This document shows positions 45,248 through 54,190 of a stretch of DNA of 64,000 nucleotides, piece by piece. Under the pieces are notes generated by a model. That model saw only the letters and a program-made list of their open reading frames with translations. It ran no database searches and had not been told where the DNA came from. The stretch lies in contig JANOQI010000062.1 in NCBI GenBank assembly GCA_031414775.1, positions 160,001 to 224,000 of the forward strand. Reading direction: 5' to 3'. Position numbers and translations under genes: made by a program. This stretch comes from Synechococcales cyanobacterium VAR_4_metabat_354. GTDB taxonomy: Bacteria > Cyanobacteriota > Cyanobacteriia > Cyanobacteriales > Chamaesiphonaceae. How positions within the stretch are numbered: the first letter of the stretch is position 1; the number at the start of each line of letters is the position of its first letter.

Positions 45248-45973
45248 ATGATTTATCCTTTACCACCAAAAGTAAGTAAGTTATTGCCTGATCTGCTAAA
45301 TAAAGGAATGATTCAGCTTGATTTAGATGGCGAAATACCAATTTTTCGAGCATCTACAATTATGCAAAAAAGAGTGGCTATTTTACAAGAATCCAGCGAT
45401 TCCAATAAATTACTAGAACAAGAAGAATTGCTTTGTCATGAAGAGATGCAGGCTTATCTTTCTTTTGTAGAACAATCTTTGCATAAAATATCTGAAAGAG
45501 AGCAAAATCATTTAATTGAGCAGTATAAAATTTGTATCGAAATGGCAGATAGAGTCACGGAGAGAAGAACCAAGATAAGTAGTTTTTATCTTTCTGTTTT
45601 GACAGGCCTATTAGTATTTTCATCCCTTCCTTACTTCAAAGATAGTATTGTTATCAATCCTAGTAGGCAAATAACGCTAATGACTAGTTTCACTGGTGCA
45701 TTTATCTGTATCTTGTGGTGGATAAATATAGCATCTTATAAAAATTTAAATTCTATCAAATTCACAGTTATTCGTGAAATGGAGAAAAACTTGCCATATC
45801 CCTGCTTTGAAAGAGAATGGGATACAAAATCTTCTAATGTCGAGAAGTACAAAAAGCTAAGAAAAGCAGAATCGTTCGTCCCCATAGTAATAGCAATTCC
45901 TTTTCCTTATCTCATCATTTCACTTACTAGTATTTATGATTTATTTTCATTGTTCTTAAATAGATCCAGATAA
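45248..45973 (+). CDS. Membrane protein: N-terminal soluble domain + 3-TM domain resembling the 'RipA/octameric membrane protein' type
   Basis: EQYKICIEMADRVTERR..SSFY, W...IASYKNLNSIKFTVIREMEKNLP..EREW; three hydrophobic segments; family name recalled, not searched. Confidence 0.65.
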   Translation: MIYPLPPKVSKLLPDLLNKGMIQLDLDGEIPIFRASTIMQKRVAILQESSDSNKLLEQEELLCHEEMQAYLSFVEQSLHKISEREQNHLIEQYKICIEMADRVTERRTKISSFYLSVLTGLLVFSSLPYFKDSIVINPSRQITLMTSFTGAFICILWWINIASYKNLNSIKFTVIREMEKNLPYPCFEREWDTKSSNVEKYKKLRKAESFVPIVIAIPFPYLIISLTSIYDLFSLFLNRSR

Positions 45974-46002
45974 CTTAAAACACCATATTACGAGGTTGGA
46001 TT

Positions 46003-48066
46003 ATGCATACAAATGAAACTAGAAGAATTTTTATATCTTGGTCTGGTAAATGGGGTAGAGAAATCGCTGATTTTCTCAGCGAAAGAATGTTTGCAATTAA
46101 TGGTTACGAAGCATGGGTTTCCTTTAGAGATATTCAAAGAGGAGCAGAATGGTATTCTGCAACTATGGAAAAACTAAGTGAATCTGATGTGGGAATTTTT
46201 TGCTTTACACCTGGAGTGTTAACTAGTCCTTGGTTCAATTTTGAGGCTGGATACATGGCAGGCAAAGGATATATAGAAAGCAGAGAATCAAGACAGGAAA
46301 ATAACGAAAACCAAAGACAGTCTCATAGACTTTATGTTATTCAATTTGGAGACGAAAATATATATACCCCTCTAGATCGATATCAATCTACAACGGCGAA
46401 TCAAATAAATGATTGGGTAGATTTAGTTTCACAAATCACAGATGATCCAAATTTTAGTAGAACGTGGGTAAATGATAGGTATCCTGAATTAGAGAGACTA
46501 CTAAGAAAGAATGAAAAACCACCTTTGAAATATTTTAATGATTTGAATAAAACATTAGTTGATATATGCAAAACTATTGATATACTCAACAATAGAAATC
46601 AAGTTGCAATGGAAAACATATGTTTCCATAAAATTATTTTAGAATCTTATCAAGATATCAAAAATAGAACGAAGAAAATAAGTAATAGCTACTCAATTCC
46701 ATCTTATTATTATGCACCTTCCTTATTTTCTTTGCAAGATGATGTTAATATACAGCCAATAGTTAAAGCTATCGCTTTAGTTAATATGGAAGAACAATTT
46801 TGGTCACAGTTAGCAGGTAGAGAAATACTTCGTACTTCCAAACCTGAAAATATTCGCATATTTGTTTTTAAAGATGATAAAGATTTTAATAATTTTTATG
46901 AGACTTTAAGTGTACATTCTAGAAAATATCAAGTTTATGCAATCAGTAGTAAAAATTTATTAGATATCGTTGGTGCAGATTATGCAACTGATTTTTCAAT
47001 TATACAATCTTCAATCAATGGAGATCGTATTCTTGCTCTTTATGAGGATGCAAATAATCTGCTCGACAAAGGGATTTGTTTCACATGTGATCAAGATCAT
47101 ATAAATGAATATGAAGACAGATTCCAACATATTTTAAATTTTAAATATCTTGTCAATATCTCTATAATTATAGAAACGAATACTATTGAGGATCTGAGTA
47201 AGACAATCTTCCAATCGACAAATACACTTTTGAAAAAACCGATAGAAATGTCTGCATATATTGATATAACAGATTATGATAGGCATGAGGAAAATCATGC
47301 TTACTATCAAGATATGATGCAACATATGATTTATATCTGCTTAGATCACTCCCAAAAGTTGAATAATAATTCAATATCTATTTTAGAGATGGGAGCTGGC
47401 ACGGGGATCTTCAGTCTTCGGCTAATTGAAAACATAAATAGTCTAGTTAAGCTTGATATTATTGAAATCGACTGGCATTGTTTTCATCTTCTAAAATCCA
47501 AAATAAAAGAATGTTTTAACGCAAATACAATTATTTCTGATGTTGCCGACAAACTTGAAATAAATATTGAACACCGTGAACGCAATACTCGTATCAATGT
47601 TTATCACAAAGATAGTAGATGGTATGACCCAAATGGAAAATTTGATTACATTGTTTCGTCTTTCGCCGATCATCATATTCACGATTTTGACAAGCAAAAA
47701 TATTTCGATAATGTCAAAAGAAATTTAAATTCTAATGGATTATTTATTATTGGAGATGAATTTTTAAGGGTATATGATCAAAATAAAACAGATGACAAAA
47801 GAAATGCTTTAGAAGACTATCATAATCATATTATAAATATTGCTAAAAGAGAAGGACACCATGTTCTTGTCTCTTTAGAACAAGCAGCTTTAGAATCAGG
47901 AATTAAAGGAATAGGTGATTTCAAAGTTTCTTGTGAAGAATATGAGAGATATTTAGATAATGCTGGTTTTAGATTTGATGAGCCTCAAAAAATAGGTCCG
48001 TTAGAACTAGATAATGTTGGAGGAATTTACGTTTACAAATGTAAATTCAGTAAGAACGAAGATTGA
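46003..48066 (+). CDS. TIR domain - central domain - class I SAM-dependent methyltransferase fusion
   Basis: TIR: RIFISWSG, WVSFRDIQRGAEW, SPWFNFEAG; MTase: ILEMGAGTG, IIEID, FDYIVSSFADHHI, LNSNGLFIIGDEF. Confidence 0.85.
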   Translation: MHTNETRRIFISWSGKWGREIADFLSERMFAINGYEAWVSFRDIQRGAEWYSATMEKLSESDVGIFCFTPGVLTSPWFNFEAGYMAGKGYIESRESRQENNENQRQSHRLYVIQFGDENIYTPLDRYQSTTANQINDWVDLVSQITDDPNFSRTWVNDRYPELERLLRKNEKPPLKYFNDLNKTLVDICKTIDILNNRNQVAMENICFHKIILESYQDIKNRTKKISNSYSIPSYYYAPSLFSLQDDVNIQPIVKAIALVNMEEQFWSQLAGREILRTSKPENIRIFVFKDDKDFNNFYETLSVHSRKYQVYAISSKNLLDIVGADYATDFSIIQSSINGDRILALYEDANNLLDKGICFTCDQDHINEYEDRFQHILNFKYLVNISIIIETNTIEDLSKTIFQSTNTLLKKPIEMSAYIDITDYDRHEENHAYYQDMMQHMIYICLDHSQKLNNNSISILEMGAGTGIFSLRLIENINSLVKLDIIEIDWHCFHLLKSKIKECFNANTIISDVADKLEINIEHRERNTRINVYHKDSRWYDPNGKFDYIVSSFADHHIHDFDKQKYFDNVKRNLNSNGLFIIGDEFLRVYDQNKTDDKRNALEDYHNHIINIAKREGHHVLVSLEQAALESGIKGIGDFKVSCEEYERYLDNAGFRFDEPQKIGPLELDNVGGIYVYKCKFSKNED

Positions 48067-49259: not shown

Positions 49260-50381
49260 ATGATCTTTAAACATTTTTTTGCCAGTCGCTTTTGGGCTTT
49301 AGTTCGCAAAGAAATTAACCAGATTTTGCGGAACAGGCAGTTAATCGTTTTACTAATTATTCCACCAACAATTCAGTTGTTGATTTATGGCTTTGCCCTA
49401 AACCCCGATGTGAATCATATCAAGCTGGGGATCGTGGACTATGCCCGCACCAACGAGAGTCGAGAATTAGTCTCCGCCCTCACTGTCAATCGAGTATTTG
49501 ATGCCCAAGCGCTGCTGTTGAACGAAAATGTTTTAGCCCAACAAGTGGAAACTGGCCAACTTTCTGCTGGGATCGTGATTCCGCCAGAATTCAGCCGAAA
49601 TCTTGCTGCTGGTAAAGCGGCTGACATTCAGGTGGTGATTGATGGCGTAGATGCCAACACCGCGGGGATTGCTAGCGGCTACATCAGTCAAATTGTGCGG
49701 CAGTTTAGCCAACAATATTTGAATCCTAGGGCGGTCGCCCCTCTGAGTACCCAAGTTGTTTTTCTCTATAACCAAGGGCTAACTAGTAGTTGGTTTTTTG
49801 TGCCGGGGGTGATGGGTCTGGTGCTTACTTTGATTGGATCGATCGTATCTTCTGTCACCGTCATTAAAGAAAAGGACACCGGTACCTTAGAGCAGCTTTT
49901 GATGACACCAGCCGAACCTTGGGAGATTTTGCTGGCTAAAGTAGTACCCCTATTTTGTTTATTGATGGGTGATGTGTTACTGGCACTGACCATCGGCACC
50001 ATCATTTTTAGTGTGCCATTTCGCGGTAACTTCCTGTTGTTTATGGGCTTATCTGGGCTGTATGTATTTGTGGGAATTGGGGTGGGCATTATGCTGGCGA
50101 CGGTTTGCCAATCGCAGCAACAAGTGGTGTTAACTACCTTTTTCATCAACTTGCCAATGGTGCAACTTTCCGGGGCAATCGCTCCGATCGAGACGATGCC
50201 AACTTTCTTCCAAACCCTATCACTGCTTAATCCGCTGCGTCATTACATTGCGATCGTCCGGGGAATTTTGCTCAAAGGTGTCGGGTTAGAGGCTCTCTGG
50301 ATGCACGCTCTGGCGCTGGCCTGTTTTGCGGTGGTGCTATTAACAATTAGCACCAACCGCTTCCGCAATCAAGTTGGCTAG
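49260..50381 (+). CDS. ABC-2 type transporter permease (YbhR-like)
   Basis: KEINQILR, DGVDAN, KEKDTGTLEQLLMTP, LSGAIAPIETMP. Confidence 0.92.
   Translation: MIFKHFFASRFWALVRKEINQILRNRQLIVLLIIPPTIQLLIYGFALNPDVNHIKLGIVDYARTNESRELVSALTVNRVFDAQALLLNENVLAQQVETGQLSAGIVIPPEFSRNLAAGKAADIQVVIDGVDANTAGIASGYISQIVRQFSQQYLNPRAVAPLSTQVVFLYNQGLTSSWFFVPGVMGLVLTLIGSIVSSVTVIKEKDTGTLEQLLMTPAEPWEILLAKVVPLFCLLMGDVLLALTIGTIIFSVPFRGNFLLFMGLSGLYVFVGIGVGIMLATVCQSQQQVVLTTFFINLPMVQLSGAIAPIETMPTFFQTLSLLNPLRHYIAIVRGILLKGVGLEALWMHALALACFAVVLLTISTNRFRNQVG
50296..50381 (+). repeat. Left copy of an 86-bp direct repeat (3' end of permease)
   Basis: 77/86 identical to 54105-54190 by manual alignment. Confidence 0.93.
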
Positions 50382-50495
50382 AAATACCTATGCAATAGAT
50401 ATTCAGTACTTTGTGACATTCTCGGTTAAACAGCTTATTTTGAATAACTTCACAATTTATTTCACACTGCTGTTATAAGATACATATATTAGGGA

Positions 50496-51362
50496 ATGAT
50501 ACGAATACTCACATGTTCCATTCCCGTAACATGTCTGCGAAACTCGCAAAAGGCAAGTATTACAGTGAATAATACAAATCCACTGATCGCACCACCACCG
50601 CTAGAAGTGCCATTGAAAAATGCACCTTTGGTGAGAGCAATAGCGCAAGTAAGGTTTCCGCCGATTTTATCGATCGAGGAGCAAAAATTTGTAGGTCCCT
50701 TTCAAGAGGCAATTCGGGAAAAATATCCGATTTTAGAGCCAATCCAAACCCAAAACGTAATATTCAACACTGAAGGTGTGTTGGTAAATCCTCCGACACC
50801 TCAGACTACTTGGTGTTTTTGGAATGTAGATCGGACTTGGCGGATTTCATTGGCAAGTAGTGCTGTATCAATTGAGACAACTAAATATACTAGTCGCAGT
50901 GACTTTTTATCTCGGTTAGAAAGTTTACTTGTAACACTTCATAGTAGTTTTCGCTTGTCGCAGATCGATCGATTGGGACTGCGCTATATTGATCGGATTG
51001 TCGGTCAAAATTTGCAAGATATTTCTCAATTAATTAGACCCGAAATGGCTGGTATTATTTGTAGCGATCTTCAGGAGTACGTACATCAAGTTTTACATGA
51101 ATCATTATTTTTGTTGCCATCAGGAGAAGCACAAATCGCCGCCAGATGGGGTGTTATGCCTGCAAATTATACTTTTGATCCCTACGGAATAGAAGCTATT
51201 CCCGAGAGTAGTTGGATACTCGACCTAGATATGTCTGCGGTAAAAGTCCAAGAATTCAGCGTTGAATCTCTAATGCAACAGGCTAACAATTTTACTGAGA
51301 GACTTTATACATTCTTTCGCTGGGTAGTAACTGATGAATTCTTACAACGCTATGGTGGTTAA
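50496..51362 (+). CDS. TIGR04255-like family protein
   Basis: LKNAPLVRAIAQVRF, ETTKYTSRSDF, RLGLRYID, WILDLD, FFRWVVTDEF; real start may be GTG 50565. Confidence 0.8.
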   Translation: MIRILTCSIPVTCLRNSQKASITVNNTNPLIAPPPLEVPLKNAPLVRAIAQVRFPPILSIEEQKFVGPFQEAIREKYPILEPIQTQNVIFNTEGVLVNPPTPQTTWCFWNVDRTWRISLASSAVSIETTKYTSRSDFLSRLESLLVTLHSSFRLSQIDRLGLRYIDRIVGQNLQDISQLIRPEMAGIICSDLQEYVHQVLHESLFLLPSGEAQIAARWGVMPANYTFDPYGIEAIPESSWILDLDMSAVKVQEFSVESLMQQANNFTERLYTFFRWVVTDEFLQRYGG

Positions 51363-51364
51363 TC

Positions 51365-52054
51365 ATGAATACTCTTTTAGAAAAAACGACTAATCAAAGA
51401 CTATTATCAAAGTGCCAAAGACCAGCATTAGACAGTAGATTTATATCAAATGTTGCAATTTTTGTTGTCGATTACAGTACAACAGTCAGGAGAGAAACCG
51501 ACTATCTTCATCTTTCAGCTGCCCTAAAGATGACCACCAGTGGTGTAGAAATACGATCGACTGTCTCACAAGTATTACTATCAACTCCGCCAGGAAGAAC
51601 TACGCAGCAAGCAATAAATGAATTAAGAAAATTAAGTGGATTAACTTGGGAACAACTTGCCACCCTCTTCAATGTTTCTCGCCGTAGCGTTCATTTTTGG
51701 GCAAGTGGACAACCCCTTACTTCTGCAAATGAACAGAAATTAAATCGAATTCTGGACGTAGTTGAGTACATTTCTCGTAGTATTTCCAGTCGCAATCGCA
51801 GTTTACTGATGGACATTGCTAATGATGGGAAATCCTACCTAGATCTGCTTGCAGCAGGTGAATACGATCAAGTCAAACATTTGCTCGGTGCGGGTAATGC
51901 ACCAGCAAAACCCAAACTAGGGCAACTATCACCCGCCGCAGAAATGTCGCGACTACCACCAAATCCAGCAGATCTGGTAGATGCCCTCCAAGATTCAATT
52001 CATCATGAAGTGGGCAAATCGAGAGCGGCTAAAAGTGTGAGGAGTCGAAATTAA
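51365..52054 (+). CDS. XRE-type HTH protein with long N- and C-terminal extensions
   Basis: INELRKLSGLTWEQLATLFNVSRRSVHFWASG; starts 2 nt after the upstream stop. Confidence 0.82.
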   Translation: MNTLLEKTTNQRLLSKCQRPALDSRFISNVAIFVVDYSTTVRRETDYLHLSAALKMTTSGVEIRSTVSQVLLSTPPGRTTQQAINELRKLSGLTWEQLATLFNVSRRSVHFWASGQPLTSANEQKLNRILDVVEYISRSISSRNRSLLMDIANDGKSYLDLLAAGEYDQVKHLLGAGNAPAKPKLGQLSPAAEMSRLPPNPADLVDALQDSIHHEVGKSRAAKSVRSRN

Positions 52055-52229
52055 TAGTGACGAGCAATGAGCGTGACAGTTGGATTTCAGCCATAGATTC
52101 CACTTTGAGCAAATGGTCTCAAGGGGATTGTACGATCGGAGACGATCACTGGTTCATTACTCGATTCGATCCGAAACGTCCCTTAACACCAGATTCTAAA
52201 GACGTTGTAGAATCAGATGCCAATGCTGA

Positions 52230-53372
52230 TACCAATTTAAATTGAATAGGTGACAAACAAGATAAACTAAAAATGTTGTAATTGAGATATTTGAGATGGC
52301 TGGAGTGACTGCAATTATCGTGAAAGAGAGCTTGGATGAAATATCCGAACGATTACGTCAAGCTAGCCAACCGATTGTTAAAGAGCGCCTACAAATGCTG
52401 TACTGGCTGAAACAGGAAAAGGCACCAAGTATCAGTAATATAGCGAAAGCCATAGGGAGACATCGAGGCACATTACAAGAGTGGTTAAGAATCTATCGAG
52501 AAGAAGGACTACCCGCATTGGAAATAGTTAAAAGTAAACCTGGTGGAGGAAGAAGAATTATCCCCAAATGGGCAGAGGAGGCTTTATCGAAGCGTTTGCA
52601 AGAGCCAGAAAACGGTTTTGTGAGCTATGGAGCAGTTCAACAATGGTTAGCCGAGACATTAGGCGTAGAAGCTGAGTATCATGCAGTTTATCAAATGACT
52701 CGTTATCGGCTCAAAGCTAAGCTGAAAGTAGCACGGCCTAGACATTACAAGCAAAGTCAGGAGCAGAGAGAGGCTTTTAAAAAAACCTCGCCGATGACCT
52801 AGAGCTATTAATGGTACACGACCAGAAGAACAATCGACCTATTAGATATTTTGCTCAGGATGAGAGTCGCTTTGGACTAAAAACTTTAGTAGGTAGAGTT
52901 CTCACAGCCTGTGGAATCAAACCAATTGGAGAATGGCAATGGTTGTTTAAGGCATTCTGGCTATATGGGGCTGTGGAACCTGCTACAGGAGAGTCTTTTT
53001 TTCTGCAATTTTCTCATGTCGATACTGAGTGCTTTCAGATATTTTTGGATAAATTCTCTAAGGCTTATCCGGATAGCCTCAATATTATTCAGGTGGACAA
53101 TGGCCGTTTTCATGCCAGCAAGAAGTTGGTGGTACCAGAGAATATCATTTTGTTGTTTCAGCCTCCTTATTGTCCAGAGTTAAATCCGATTGAGCACTTG
53201 TGGCAATACCTCAAAGCTGATTTACGGTGGGCTTCTTTTAAAAACCTAGAGCAACTTCAAACCAAATTAGGACAACTTTTAGCGCAGTTGACTCCTGAAG
53301 TTATTACTTCCGTTACAGGATATCCCTTTATTCTGGATGCTCTATCCGTCGTTAATGCTATTTAAATTGGTA
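52230..53372 (+). mobile_element. IS630-family insertion sequence (1143 bp)
   Basis: Terminal inverted repeats TACCAATTTAAAT / ATTTAAATTGGTA; flanked by TGA on both sides; DDE transposase inside. Confidence 0.93.
52296..53365 (+). CDS. IS630 transposase, two ORFs joined by a probable programmed -1 frameshift
   Basis: HTH ORF 52296-52802; catalytic ORF with QDESRFG, DNGRFH, PELNPIE; slippery TTTT-A7 at 52775-52785 and the -1 frame stays open (KNLADDLELLMVHDQ). Confidence 0.9.
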
Positions 53373-54104
53373 TGATTTAGCAGAGTCAGCAGTCAGAGGT
53401 TTTGTTATTGTTACTCAGACATGCGATCTAGTCCGTTCTTGTAAAGATCGCCCTTTCGTCGAAATCTCGCCATTAGTAGAAGTTGATGCCGAATGGTTGG
53501 CAGAAATTAAAAGACTGAAGCGACCCAACTATTCTTATATTGCAGGAGTTGCCGATCTCTTTTTGGTCGCTGACCTTGATCGAGTGATGACAATCGAAAA
53601 GGCTGTTGTTGCAACATGGGAAAAAATACCAGGATGCCAAAGTGATGCAGATATTCGATCGCTGGGAGAGGCATTATCACGAAAACGTAGTCGATTTGCT
53701 TTTCCTGATGATTTTAATAAATTAGCTCAAAAGCTACAAAAACGAATGCAGGACAAACACGAAAAAACTAGCCCTGAAGGTAAGGCTCTTCGTGCTTTAG
53801 TTGAAATCAGAGTAAGGGCGGCACCATCTTGGGGTGATGAGAAAAAAGTAGAACTATTTTTCTGGTTTATTTGTACAGAGGAAGAGGATTGCTCTAAAGA
53901 CATGGAATGGCATAAACGATTACCTGAGTGGCTGAATCTACTCCCTACATCGGGAAGATTTACAACCGTGGATGGCTCGGTAGTAAAGTTGGAAGATATG
54001 ACAGCTAAAGATTACGCGCAAAGTGATCGACTCGATCTTGATCGGCTATCTTCCCATTGAATGACATTTATAGAAGTCAACTATCAGTGTAGGACTGAAA
54101 GTCA

Positions 54105-54190
54105 TCTGGATGCACGCTTTGGCACTGGCCTGTTTTGCGGTGGTGTTATTAGCCATTAGCACCAGCCGTTTCCGTAATCAAGTTGGCTAA
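54105..54190 (+). repeat. Right copy of the 86-bp direct repeat (orphan permease 3' end)
   Basis: Encodes WMHALALACFAVVLLAISTSRFRNQVG*; its TAA directly abuts the stop of the convergent gene at 54191. Confidence 0.93.

Follow-up and report, generated by a model that had tools for sequence, protein, structure and literature searches.

Layout of the locus

The window, which is the whole stretch of 64,000 nucleotides analysed here, carries a repeat-bounded islet with three genes, the third of which is split by an insertion element. Features (positions in the window):

50296..50380, + strand: left island boundary, one copy of the 85-nt direct repeat, formed by the 3' end of the ABC-2 permease gene
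50461..50490, + strand: best sigma-70-like promoter match (10/12), upstream of gene 1; not above chance
50565..51362, + strand: gene 1, TIGR04255 family, about 265 aa from a probable GTG start (longest open reading frame from 50496)
51365..52054, + strand: gene 2, 229 aa; proposed antitoxin
52057..52229, + strand: gene 3, 5' piece with the WSQGD motif and the start of the predicted MazF-like domain
52230..53372, + strand: IS630-family element with two open reading frames, terminal inverted repeats and a 3-bp TGA duplication
52296..52802, + strand: IS630 open reading frame, HTH
52811..53365, + strand: IS630 open reading frame, DDE_3
53373..54060, + strand: gene 3, 3' piece with the TQTCD motif, the remaining predicted MazF/CcdB-fold domain and a C-terminal MNT-like domain
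54105..54189, + strand: right island boundary, second copy of the direct repeat, worn down to about 25 nt in genome G001

The first-pass annotation had described three genes with 2-nt gaps inside a repeat-bounded island, and both points were confirmed: the open reading frames span 50496–51362, 51365–52054 and 52057–52245, with the 3' piece of gene 3 ending at 54060; the two 85-nt copies are 91% identical and duplicate the 3' end of the ABC permease gene; genomes G007 and G003 have the empty site. One contig from another sample skips exactly 3809 bp between the repeats, which gives an island-free allele. Among 54 other triad loci only 5 have direct repeats on their flanks, so insertion between repeats is not the rule; no integrase belonging to the cassette itself was found. 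The promoter scan upstream of gene 1 gave 7 sites (9.5 expected).

Insertion element and intact alleles of gene 3

The element that splits gene 3 has TACC...GGTA ends, 19-nt inverted repeats and TGA on each flank; DDE_3 was matched at E 2.8e-19, NF033545 spans both open reading frames, and the target duplication is 3 bp here, where TA would be usual. In one study, two runs have contigs that skip 1146 bp (from 52226 to 53373), that is, the 1143-bp element and the 3-bp duplication; because they skip the two exactly, an uninterrupted gene 3 allele exists. The rebuilding of gene 3 across the element to about 285 aa, proposed earlier, was borne out by G001 of the same genus, which has a 285-aa gene 3 free of the element at the same site; the motifs WSQGD and VIVTQTCDL are both present. 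The cassette is inactivated in this genome by IS630 in gene 3. The view that gene 3 is the breakable gene held as well: it is disrupted in 4 other loci, with in-frame stops or insertion elements in 4/94 loci for gene 3, 0/79 for gene 1 and 0/91 for gene 2 (P about 0.03 given the genes' shares of the length); stops seen in metagenome contigs may be assembly errors.

Conservation and mobility of the triad

Recurrence of the triad in other genomes was confirmed in metagenome loci, on plasmids and in 6 of 301 phylum genomes, where gene 3 stands each time beside TIGR04255. Gene 1 lies upstream of gene 3 in 62/62 evaluable metagenome loci; two metagenome loci first scored as lacking gene 2 also carry all three genes, and the order TIGR04255, gene 2, gene 3 was found in every complete locus read. 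TIGR04255 lies about 1.5 kb upstream in 6/6 plasmid matches of gene 3 (Cyanobacteria, Alphaproteobacteria, Actinomycetota). Presence is sporadic (36/301 phylum genomes; 44 TIGR04255 loci), and triads occur on plasmids, prophage-like contigs and repeat-bounded islets; gene 3 was not found in the GenBank phage set and was found in 5 IMG/VR contigs. The triad is a mobile three-gene cassette, conserved and coupled. The ESM Atlas search returned unnamed clusters only; PHROGs and PADLOC gave no useful match for the window triad or 37 relatives, except HEPN.

Gene 1 (TIGR04255 protein)

Gene 1 belongs to TIGR04255, as had been noted (E 2.6e-51; 174.9 bits, cut-off 30; profile positions 2–250 of 252). 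The annotated open reading frame from 50496 is present; its ATG was left without support from relatives, and the start is probably GTG 50565 (265 aa), since most relatives start there. The ATG of the genus type, at 50531, is out of frame (one extra base relative to G001).

The protein is predicted to be a broad beta-sheet alpha/beta protein. No Pfam match was obtained at E ≤ 1, and PDB sequence search gave nothing meaningful. Among the structural matches listed, McsB and phosphagen-kinase catalytic domains are the only whole-length ones (Z 8.2–8.4, rmsd 3.8–5.0, 173–187 aligned, identity 6–12%); Z of 8 is in the range that the structure tool calls a common arrangement, and TBP, AdoMetDC and Med20 score about equal. 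No McsB homologue was found in the 301 phylum genomes. SecB is absent among the listed matches, which does not exclude a family that is not listed. In 36 divergent members the polar residues R137, N/D140, D217, D219 and Y105/Y138 are retained; the family as a whole has no invariant residue. The secondary structure suggests an internal duplication; profile comparison does not detect one (prob 0.12). The predicted complex of gene 1 with full-length gene 2 (ipSAE 0.00 and 0.02, mark 0.32) speaks neither way on binding.

Gene 2 (Xre/MbcA-like HTH protein)

Gene 2 consists of a variable Ser/Thr-rich N-tail (about 1–75), an Xre/MbcA-like HTH body (about 76–175) and a conserved C-tail. The N-tail is fast-evolving and 26% Ser+Thr; the Thr in its TTSG is nearly invariant. 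It is not aromatic-rich (FWY 4.5%; body 5.0%). The profile of gene 2 matches MbcA at E 0.039, in an alignment that covers the HTH and the body and includes the 'P.DL...GEY..V' stretch; weak Xre-like-HTH (PF20432) matches were found in 37/48 members (best 6.4e-5), the window protein scoring 15.9 bits, below the 25.8 cut-off. No match to the Xre/MbcA C-terminal family was listed. The MbcA alignment and the PF20432 matches agree with the antitoxin-like character proposed for the HTH protein at first, and from its sequence gene 2 is likely a DNA-binding antitoxin.

Gene 3 (predicted MazF/CcdB-fold protein)

The model was built on the intact G001 copy (pLDDT 93.8). Residues 16–166 match MazF/CcdB/Kid (best, 8zws_A: Z 10.2, rmsd 2.8, 102 aligned); all top 10 listed structural matches are PemK/CcdB SH3-like barrels; Foldseek E 2e-4. 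The PemK/MazF fold suggested by the first reading of the motifs stands as a predicted structure, but for about the first 165 residues only, to which an MNT-like domain is fused. No Pfam family, PF02452 (PemK) included, was matched at meaningful E by either window piece or by intact gene 3; set against 17 local PemK proteins, the gene 3 profile gave no significant match (prob 0.85), and PDB sequence search gave nothing meaningful. The C-domain has a modest fold match to minimal nucleotidyltransferases (MNT; Z 5.2–5.9), and its best structural match is the immunity protein MafI2 (Z 6.8). Conserved GS and DxD, which we take to be the catalytic motifs of minimal nucleotidyltransferases, were sought in the C-domain, and neither was found (columns 200–225); the domain is predicted to be degenerate nucleotidyltransferase-like.

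Positions 65 and 92, the counterparts of the catalytic Arg in the RP motif of MazF and of the Thr in its PxT motif, were assigned by motif, not by residue-level structural alignment; position 65 is R in 12/127 sequences, position 92 is T in 6/127 and V in 76/127. Invariant residues are Q22, D24, C74 and R164. Because the catalytic positions are not conserved, gene 3 is probably not a canonical MazF RNase; it is doubtful that it is an ordinary MazF mRNA interferase, and a CcdB-like poison, or an RNase with another active site (Q22, D24, C74, R164), appears more likely.

TIGR04255 operons with other third genes

The third gene was recorded at all 44 TIGR04255 loci of the 301 cyanobacterial-phylum genomes: 6 are of the present gene 3 type, 15 are short MazF-like QxCD genes, 17 encode unnamed small proteins with an R..S..H pattern, and the remainder are 2 HEPN, 1 PIN, 1 MBL, 1 other unnamed and 1 decayed gene. 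In these three-gene operons the first gene, TIGR04255, stays constant and the toxin-like end is exchanged. Short relatives have no HTH partner. For the 17 unnamed proteins the R..S..H pattern suggests the label ADP-ribosyltransferase/RES-like, which found no support: Pfam, NCBIfam and PDB gave no match, and the two subgroups do not align. The AbrB-like look of the second gene at one locus (L235) has no Pfam support; PDB sequence searches with profiles A1, A2, A5 and A6 gave nothing meaningful.

Seven third-gene loci had no earlier tie to TIGR04255; in 4 of these the first gene is absent, as judged from 1.5 kb upstream only, and gene 2 is short. In one (L240) only residues 100–207 of the 207-aa form of gene 2 remain; in two others (L226/L228) 21 residues of gene 1 are fused to the last 41 residues of gene 2. 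Loss of the gene 2 tail accompanies loss of TIGR04255 in 2–3 independent events only, and these loci may be decaying remnants.

Comparison with known systems

The first-pass annotation had likened the layout to TACs (gene order toxin-antitoxin-chaperone) in reversed order; the likeness held, the proposed order here being partner-antitoxin-toxin. SecB is absent from the listed structural matches of gene 1. As in the TACs (HigBAC, MqsRAC, CmdTAC; 10.1101/2024.02.24.581848, PMC11618068, in the parts available), there are three coupled genes, a constant partner with swappable toxin-antitoxin pairs, mobility and a link to defence, and a variable disordered antitoxin tail that is missing where the partner is missing. 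Natural loss of the gene 2 tail where gene 1 is missing parallels the removal of ChAD, which in the accessible part of the same source makes a TAC pair chaperone-independent (10.1101/2024.02.24.581848). Unlike ChAD, described there as C-terminal and aromatic, the gene 2 tail is N-terminal and Ser/Thr-rich, and the C-tail is conserved; the partner is a TIGR04255 protein of ~260 aa whose listed structural matches are not SecB, and the effectors of TIGR04255 operons include MazF-like, HEPN, PIN and MBL proteins.

DS-42 (PRO1), from an E. coli prophage, is a validated three-gene anti-phage system according to tables S6–S8 of PMC13092281, with a modest screen value (−log EOP 1.1 on Bas1); its ~240-aa first gene overlaps a ~190-aa tailed second gene, and an effector follows. 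Unlike the present triad, whose layout it shares, DS-42 has an MBL hydrolase as effector, and its second gene does not encode an HTH protein. In one operon a DS-42C-like MBL follows a true TIGR04255 gene (hhalign 98.8%), and elsewhere a TQTCD gene stands behind a DS-42A-like gene (71% and 87.7%). No homology of DS-42A itself to TIGR04255 was detected (prob 0.1–0.3, within shuffled scores).

With MazEF, PemIK and CcdAB gene 3 shares the predicted fold of residues 16–166; unlike MazEF/PemIK it has no PemK Pfam match, an insertion of ~35 residues after the first strand, a QxCD motif with an invariant Cys, variable catalytic Arg/Thr positions, a fused MNT-like domain, and a partner that is Xre/MbcA-like, not MazE. 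Like the MbcA/ParS/Xre antitoxins, gene 2 has an HTH and helical body that align with MbcA; it differs in its long N- and C-tails, scores below family cut-offs and pairing with a MazF-fold protein instead of a RES toxin. GajC of Type II Gabija, a split MazF-like protein, is another divergent MazF-like domain in phage defence; its partner is a UvrD helicase, and its likeness to gene 3 is by description only (PMC13069673, in the part available).

Defence context

Defence families lie within 2.5 kb of triads at 15/128 open reading frames (10/29 loci), compared with 0/140 control open reading frames from 20 arbitrary cyanobacterial regions not matched for mobility; the enrichment includes RM/Abi genes. 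At 19/29 loci there is no clear defence neighbour within this distance, and many triads stand among housekeeping genes. Table S4 of PMC13092281 (DefensePredictor) has 8 TIGR04255 proteins among its predicted defence genes (log-odds 4.7–9.3). TIGR04255 is named in no main text searched; it may be named in subscription papers, in bioRxiv supplements, or in Table S1 or the supplementary PDF of PMC13092281. No main text with DefensePredictor and DS-42 together was found, nor was any description of the TIGR04255 operon family in the literature searched, including the available part of 10.1101/2025.09.30.679545.

Proposed mechanism and alternatives

On the observed gene content, coupling, conservation, mobility and family co-occurrence, and on predicted folds, we propose with a probability of about one half that the cassette is a tripartite toxin-antitoxin switch for phage defence. 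Gene 3, with its predicted MazF/CcdB fold and degenerate nucleotidyltransferase-like domain, would be the toxin; gene 2 would be the DNA-binding antitoxin that neutralises it; the TIGR04255 protein would act as tail guardian, binding and protecting the unstructured N-tail of gene 2, from which a phage signal would displace it. A wider proposal, more tentative, is that TIGR04255 may form a second class of toxin-antitoxin guardian, one independent of SecB: it would be a phage sensor of wide occurrence that captured many unrelated pairs through an N-terminal addiction tail on the antitoxin, the MazF-fold QxCD proteins would be a new toxin family, and DS-42 would be a distant member.

With the same toxin-antitoxin core, gene 1 could be an enzyme (distant guanidino-kinase/ligase fold) that modifies gene 2 at its Ser/Thr-rich tail, or a binder of a nucleotide signal, and not a holdase. 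The whole-length kinase-domain matches, the polar residues kept in 36 divergent members and the 26% Ser+Thr tail with its TTSG Thr speak for it; the Z of 8 is, however, a common arrangement at 6–12% identity, equalled by TBP, AdoMetDC and Med20, and the missing Pfam match and the lack of a family-wide invariant residue also make this role unlikely. Somewhat harder to uphold is a three-component toxin-antitoxin module, selfish or responding to stress, that would stabilise mobile DNA and play no part against phage: location on plasmids, prophage-like contigs and repeat-bounded islets, the lack of an own integrase and the 19/29 loci without a clear defence neighbour agree with it, whereas sporadic presence (36/301 genomes), swapping of effector types, RM/Abi neighbours, DefensePredictor scores and the DS-42 layout fit defence.

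CalpT is a MazF-like anti-sigma, and gene 3 might similarly be a non-toxic regulatory or sensing protein in a transcription switch run by the HTH protein, to which the non-conserved catalytic positions and the MafI2 match of the C-domain (Z 6.8) would correspond; this is very improbable, given that only gene 3 was found broken, that the same slot elsewhere holds HEPN, PIN and MBL nucleases, and that the short relatives lack an HTH partner.

Under the tripartite defence switch, the widespread and unstudied TIGR04255 family would gain a candidate role, and a modular defence class is predicted, with at least 7 effector types in 44 cyanobacterial-phylum loci and unflagged by PADLOC v2 in the members scanned. 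If the tail does depend on its partner, immunity gated by a chaperone evolved on at least two occasions, and, as in TACs, sensors and toxins could be recombined by experiment. A MazF-fold protein that has an invariant Cys and lacks the canonical catalytic pair may act on a new target. The natural intact, IS-broken, island-free and gene-1-less versions are ready comparisons.

Interrupted cassette and its alleles

The source genome comprises 3.56 Mb, and the window is located on its contig C62. Three genes spaced by 2-nt gaps follow an ABC-2 permease gene, an 85-nt copy of whose 3' end sits beyond the third of them; empty sites were found in two other genomes (G007 and G003). The repeat-bounded three-gene island of the first-pass annotation was recovered with the following features:

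50565..51362, gene 1, TIGR04255 family (profile match)
51365..52054, gene 2, tailed HTH protein, proposed antitoxin
52057..52229 + 53373..54060, gene 3, predicted toxin
52230-53372, IS630, interrupting gene 3; TGA on each flank

The same island with intact gene 3 is present in the same-genus genome G001; the product is of 285 aa, in agreement with the ca. 285 aa that had been reconstructed across the IS. In public runs, contigs ~99% identical to the window omit 1146 bp at the IS (IS-free allele; 2 runs, one study), and one such contig omits the 3809-bp island entirely. dN/dS versus G001: 0.15 (gene 1), 0.19 (gene 2 body), 0.57 (gene 2 tail), 0.36 and 0.20 (two gene 3 pieces); these values argue that the cassette was under purifying selection up to a recent insertion.

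The IS630 copy (52230-53372) shows a 3-bp TGA duplication; elsewhere in the genome, TA borders several other ends of this element. Gene 1 starts likely at GTG 50565. At 50531-50572 the genus-type start is one base out of frame relative to G001, and therefore either gene 1 begins at a later start or decay is also under way there.

Product of gene 3

The model of intact G001 gene 3 (pLDDT 93.8) resembles MazF, CcdB and Kid over residues 16-166 (Z 10.2 to 6.8), as anticipated from the motifs (PemK/MazF-like fold); the best structural counterparts of residues 167-280 are MafI2 (Z 6.8) and, less closely, minimal nucleotidyltransferases (Z 5.2-5.9), the GS/DxD motifs being absent from this C-domain. 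Invariant are Q22, D24, G66, C74 and R164. By motif, MazF 'RP' corresponds to 'xG' and 'PxT' to 'PLV'; the catalytic Arg and Thr of these MazF motifs are rare at the matched positions, and gene 3 does not count as a canonical MazF. Profile comparison (hhalign 96%, E 5e-9) shows it to be homologous to a family of shorter, stand-alone proteins that carry RQG[DE] and [TS]QxCD.

The proposal that only the putative effector is inactivated was supported: a stop or IS was found in gene 3 at 4 of 94 loci, in gene 1 at 0/79 and in gene 2 at 0/91. These loci were chosen by best gene 3 matches, and a frameshift in the tail of gene 2, which was not aligned, would have escaped the survey.

Conservation of the triad

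A search of representatives clustered at 50% identity gave 1177 relatives of gene 3 (E<=0.001). Of 80 loci from metagenomes, 62 had sufficient flank to look for TIGR04255, which stands upstream in all 62; the HTH gene stands upstream in 67/69, the two misses being artefacts of gene 3 stops (both genes are present there); genes 1 and 2 overlap by ATGA in 43/48 complete triads. The triad was found on 6/6 plasmids with a gene 3 match (Chroococcidiopsis, Rhizobium, Sinorhizobium, Sphingomonas, Kocuria), on viral contigs and, as more divergent forms, in Paenarthrobacter, Robbsia, Meiothermus and Mesorhizobium. It is conserved across genomes and sporadic (6/301 phylum genomes), and the sporadic distribution ascribed to TIGR04255 holds as well: 36/301 phylum genomes, 44 loci; control genomes 0/14.

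All 44 loci were read individually. A same-strand three-gene set headed by TIGR04255 occurs at 43 (one with a 1.2-kb gap ahead of gene 3); the remaining locus is decayed. Third genes: 6 of the window type, 15 short QxCD, 17 unnamed small proteins, 2 HEPN, 1 PIN, 1 MBL, 1 other. The 17 unnamed proteins form two groups with an R..S..H pattern, which may mark a putative ADP-ribosyltransferase/RES-like enzyme class. Second-gene bodies are unrelated, most with a low-complexity tail at the start (by eye). The window's own genome carries a second, intact triad (C31:140975-142634) with another second gene and an unnamed 137-aa R..S..H third gene, one of these 17.

Triads at two other loci, with different target genes, are likewise flanked by long and nearly perfect host-sequence duplications: 189 bp at 97% in L105 (1636-1824 upstream, 185-373 downstream; no integrase seen) and 108 bp at 98% in L141. 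On a Rhizobium plasmid (L059:2147-7129) a TIGR04255 triad adjoins a multi-ubiquitin / ThiF / DUF6527 operon; its third gene is another unnamed protein, resembling that of L182 by eye.

Gene 2 and apparent loss of its tail

Gene 2, with the HTH at residues 85-128 (domain search), consists of a variable N-tail, a conserved body and a conserved C-tail (top-residue share 0.36, 0.69 and 0.61); the N-tail is 26% Ser+Thr, with TS..G and TTSG motifs. The profile alignment of the body with MbcA antitoxin (E 0.039) and weak matches to Xre-like-HTH and RES/Xre antitoxin families are suggestive of a relation short of family membership.

The 301 genomes were searched with two profiles of third genes, which matched 21 and 11 times. 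Seven loci without a prior TIGR04255 tie comprised two with a divergent first gene, one remnant and four without a first gene within 1.5 kb, gene 2 being short in these four: in L240 its 118 aa correspond to residues 100-207 of the version with a tail (71%); in L226 and L228 (one genus) the first 21 residues of gene 1 are fused to the last 41 of gene 2 ahead of an intact QxCD gene; in L235 it is unrelated. Tail and gene 1 partner therefore appear to have been lost together in 2-3 independent cases. The divergent first genes (L229:170-946 and L232) head QxCD operons and pass no TIGR04255 test; the superfamily is therefore probably wider than the HMM.

Reading of the operon

According to 10.1101/2024.02.24.581848, a disordered tail makes the antitoxin of toxin-antitoxin-chaperone systems (TACs) depend on SecB, for which phage proteins compete; removal of the tail frees the toxin-antitoxin pair. 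A TAC-like layout in reversed order had been suggested, and the order partner, tailed putative antitoxin, putative toxin was found; the triad differs from TACs in gene order and in tail and is not a TAC by membership. The constant partner (gene 1) would be translated first, in direct coupling with the tailed antitoxin, and the exchangeable toxin last. TAC-like logic built from different parts is, by this analogy, the simplest reading (probability ca. 0.5), and the triad would serve as a tripartite toxin-antitoxin system in defence.

Gene 1 was modelled as a wide sheet with helices behind (pLDDT 90.6); the structure comparison gave no close solved relative. Best match: the N-domain of spermine synthase (Z 9.0, over half the length), with Med20, AdoMetDC and TBP also among the best; whole length: McsB/phosphagen kinases (Z 8.2-8.4); one unnamed viral protein: TM 0.50/0.62. 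That gene 1 is an enzyme, as some of these matches might suggest, is unlikely. Around 29 triads, clear defence families account for 15/128 ORFs at distances up to 2.5 kb, versus 0/140 control ORFs (Fisher P about 1e-5; control not matched for mobility): RM, AbiE, HEPN, GmrSD, RloB, AIPR, PIN_8, AAA_15, HTH-M78. The control ORFs (140/180 sampled) came from 20 regions chosen arbitrarily in 10 cyanobacterial genomes; 6/134 candidate neighbours were excluded as duplicates of another locus or overlapping frame, and Uma2, SNF2, HerA and XPB matches were scored ambiguous in both sets. Beside this enrichment, an addiction module with no defence role is rather improbable; a non-toxic regulator is the least credible.

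In Table S4 of DefensePredictor (PMC13092281), 8 proteins of the TIGR04255 family are scored as predicted defence genes. The layout of DS-42, the validated E. coli prophage system of that paper, is the same as that of the TIGR04255 triads; its exact proteins were located for comparison. The MBL of DS-42 shows homology (98.8%) to one that follows a TIGR04255 gene scoring above the cut-off, and one TQTCD operon begins with a DS-42A-like gene; no significant alignment of DS-42A with TIGR04255 was found by profile comparison. Literature: 'TIGR04255' occurs in no searched main text, and topic searches gave no description of the operon family; supplements and subscription papers might hold either.

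One triad adjoins a reverse transcriptase + bAvd pair (L124:4634-6045; diversity-generating retroelement-like). In the window, a low-GC (29-34%) insert at 45248-48066, between ABC ATPase and first permease, holds two genes, one for a membrane protein of 8xMP/SLATT-like type (E 5e-30) and one for a 687-aa protein with TIR_2 and methyltransferase parts; it is probably a second defence islet within the same operon.
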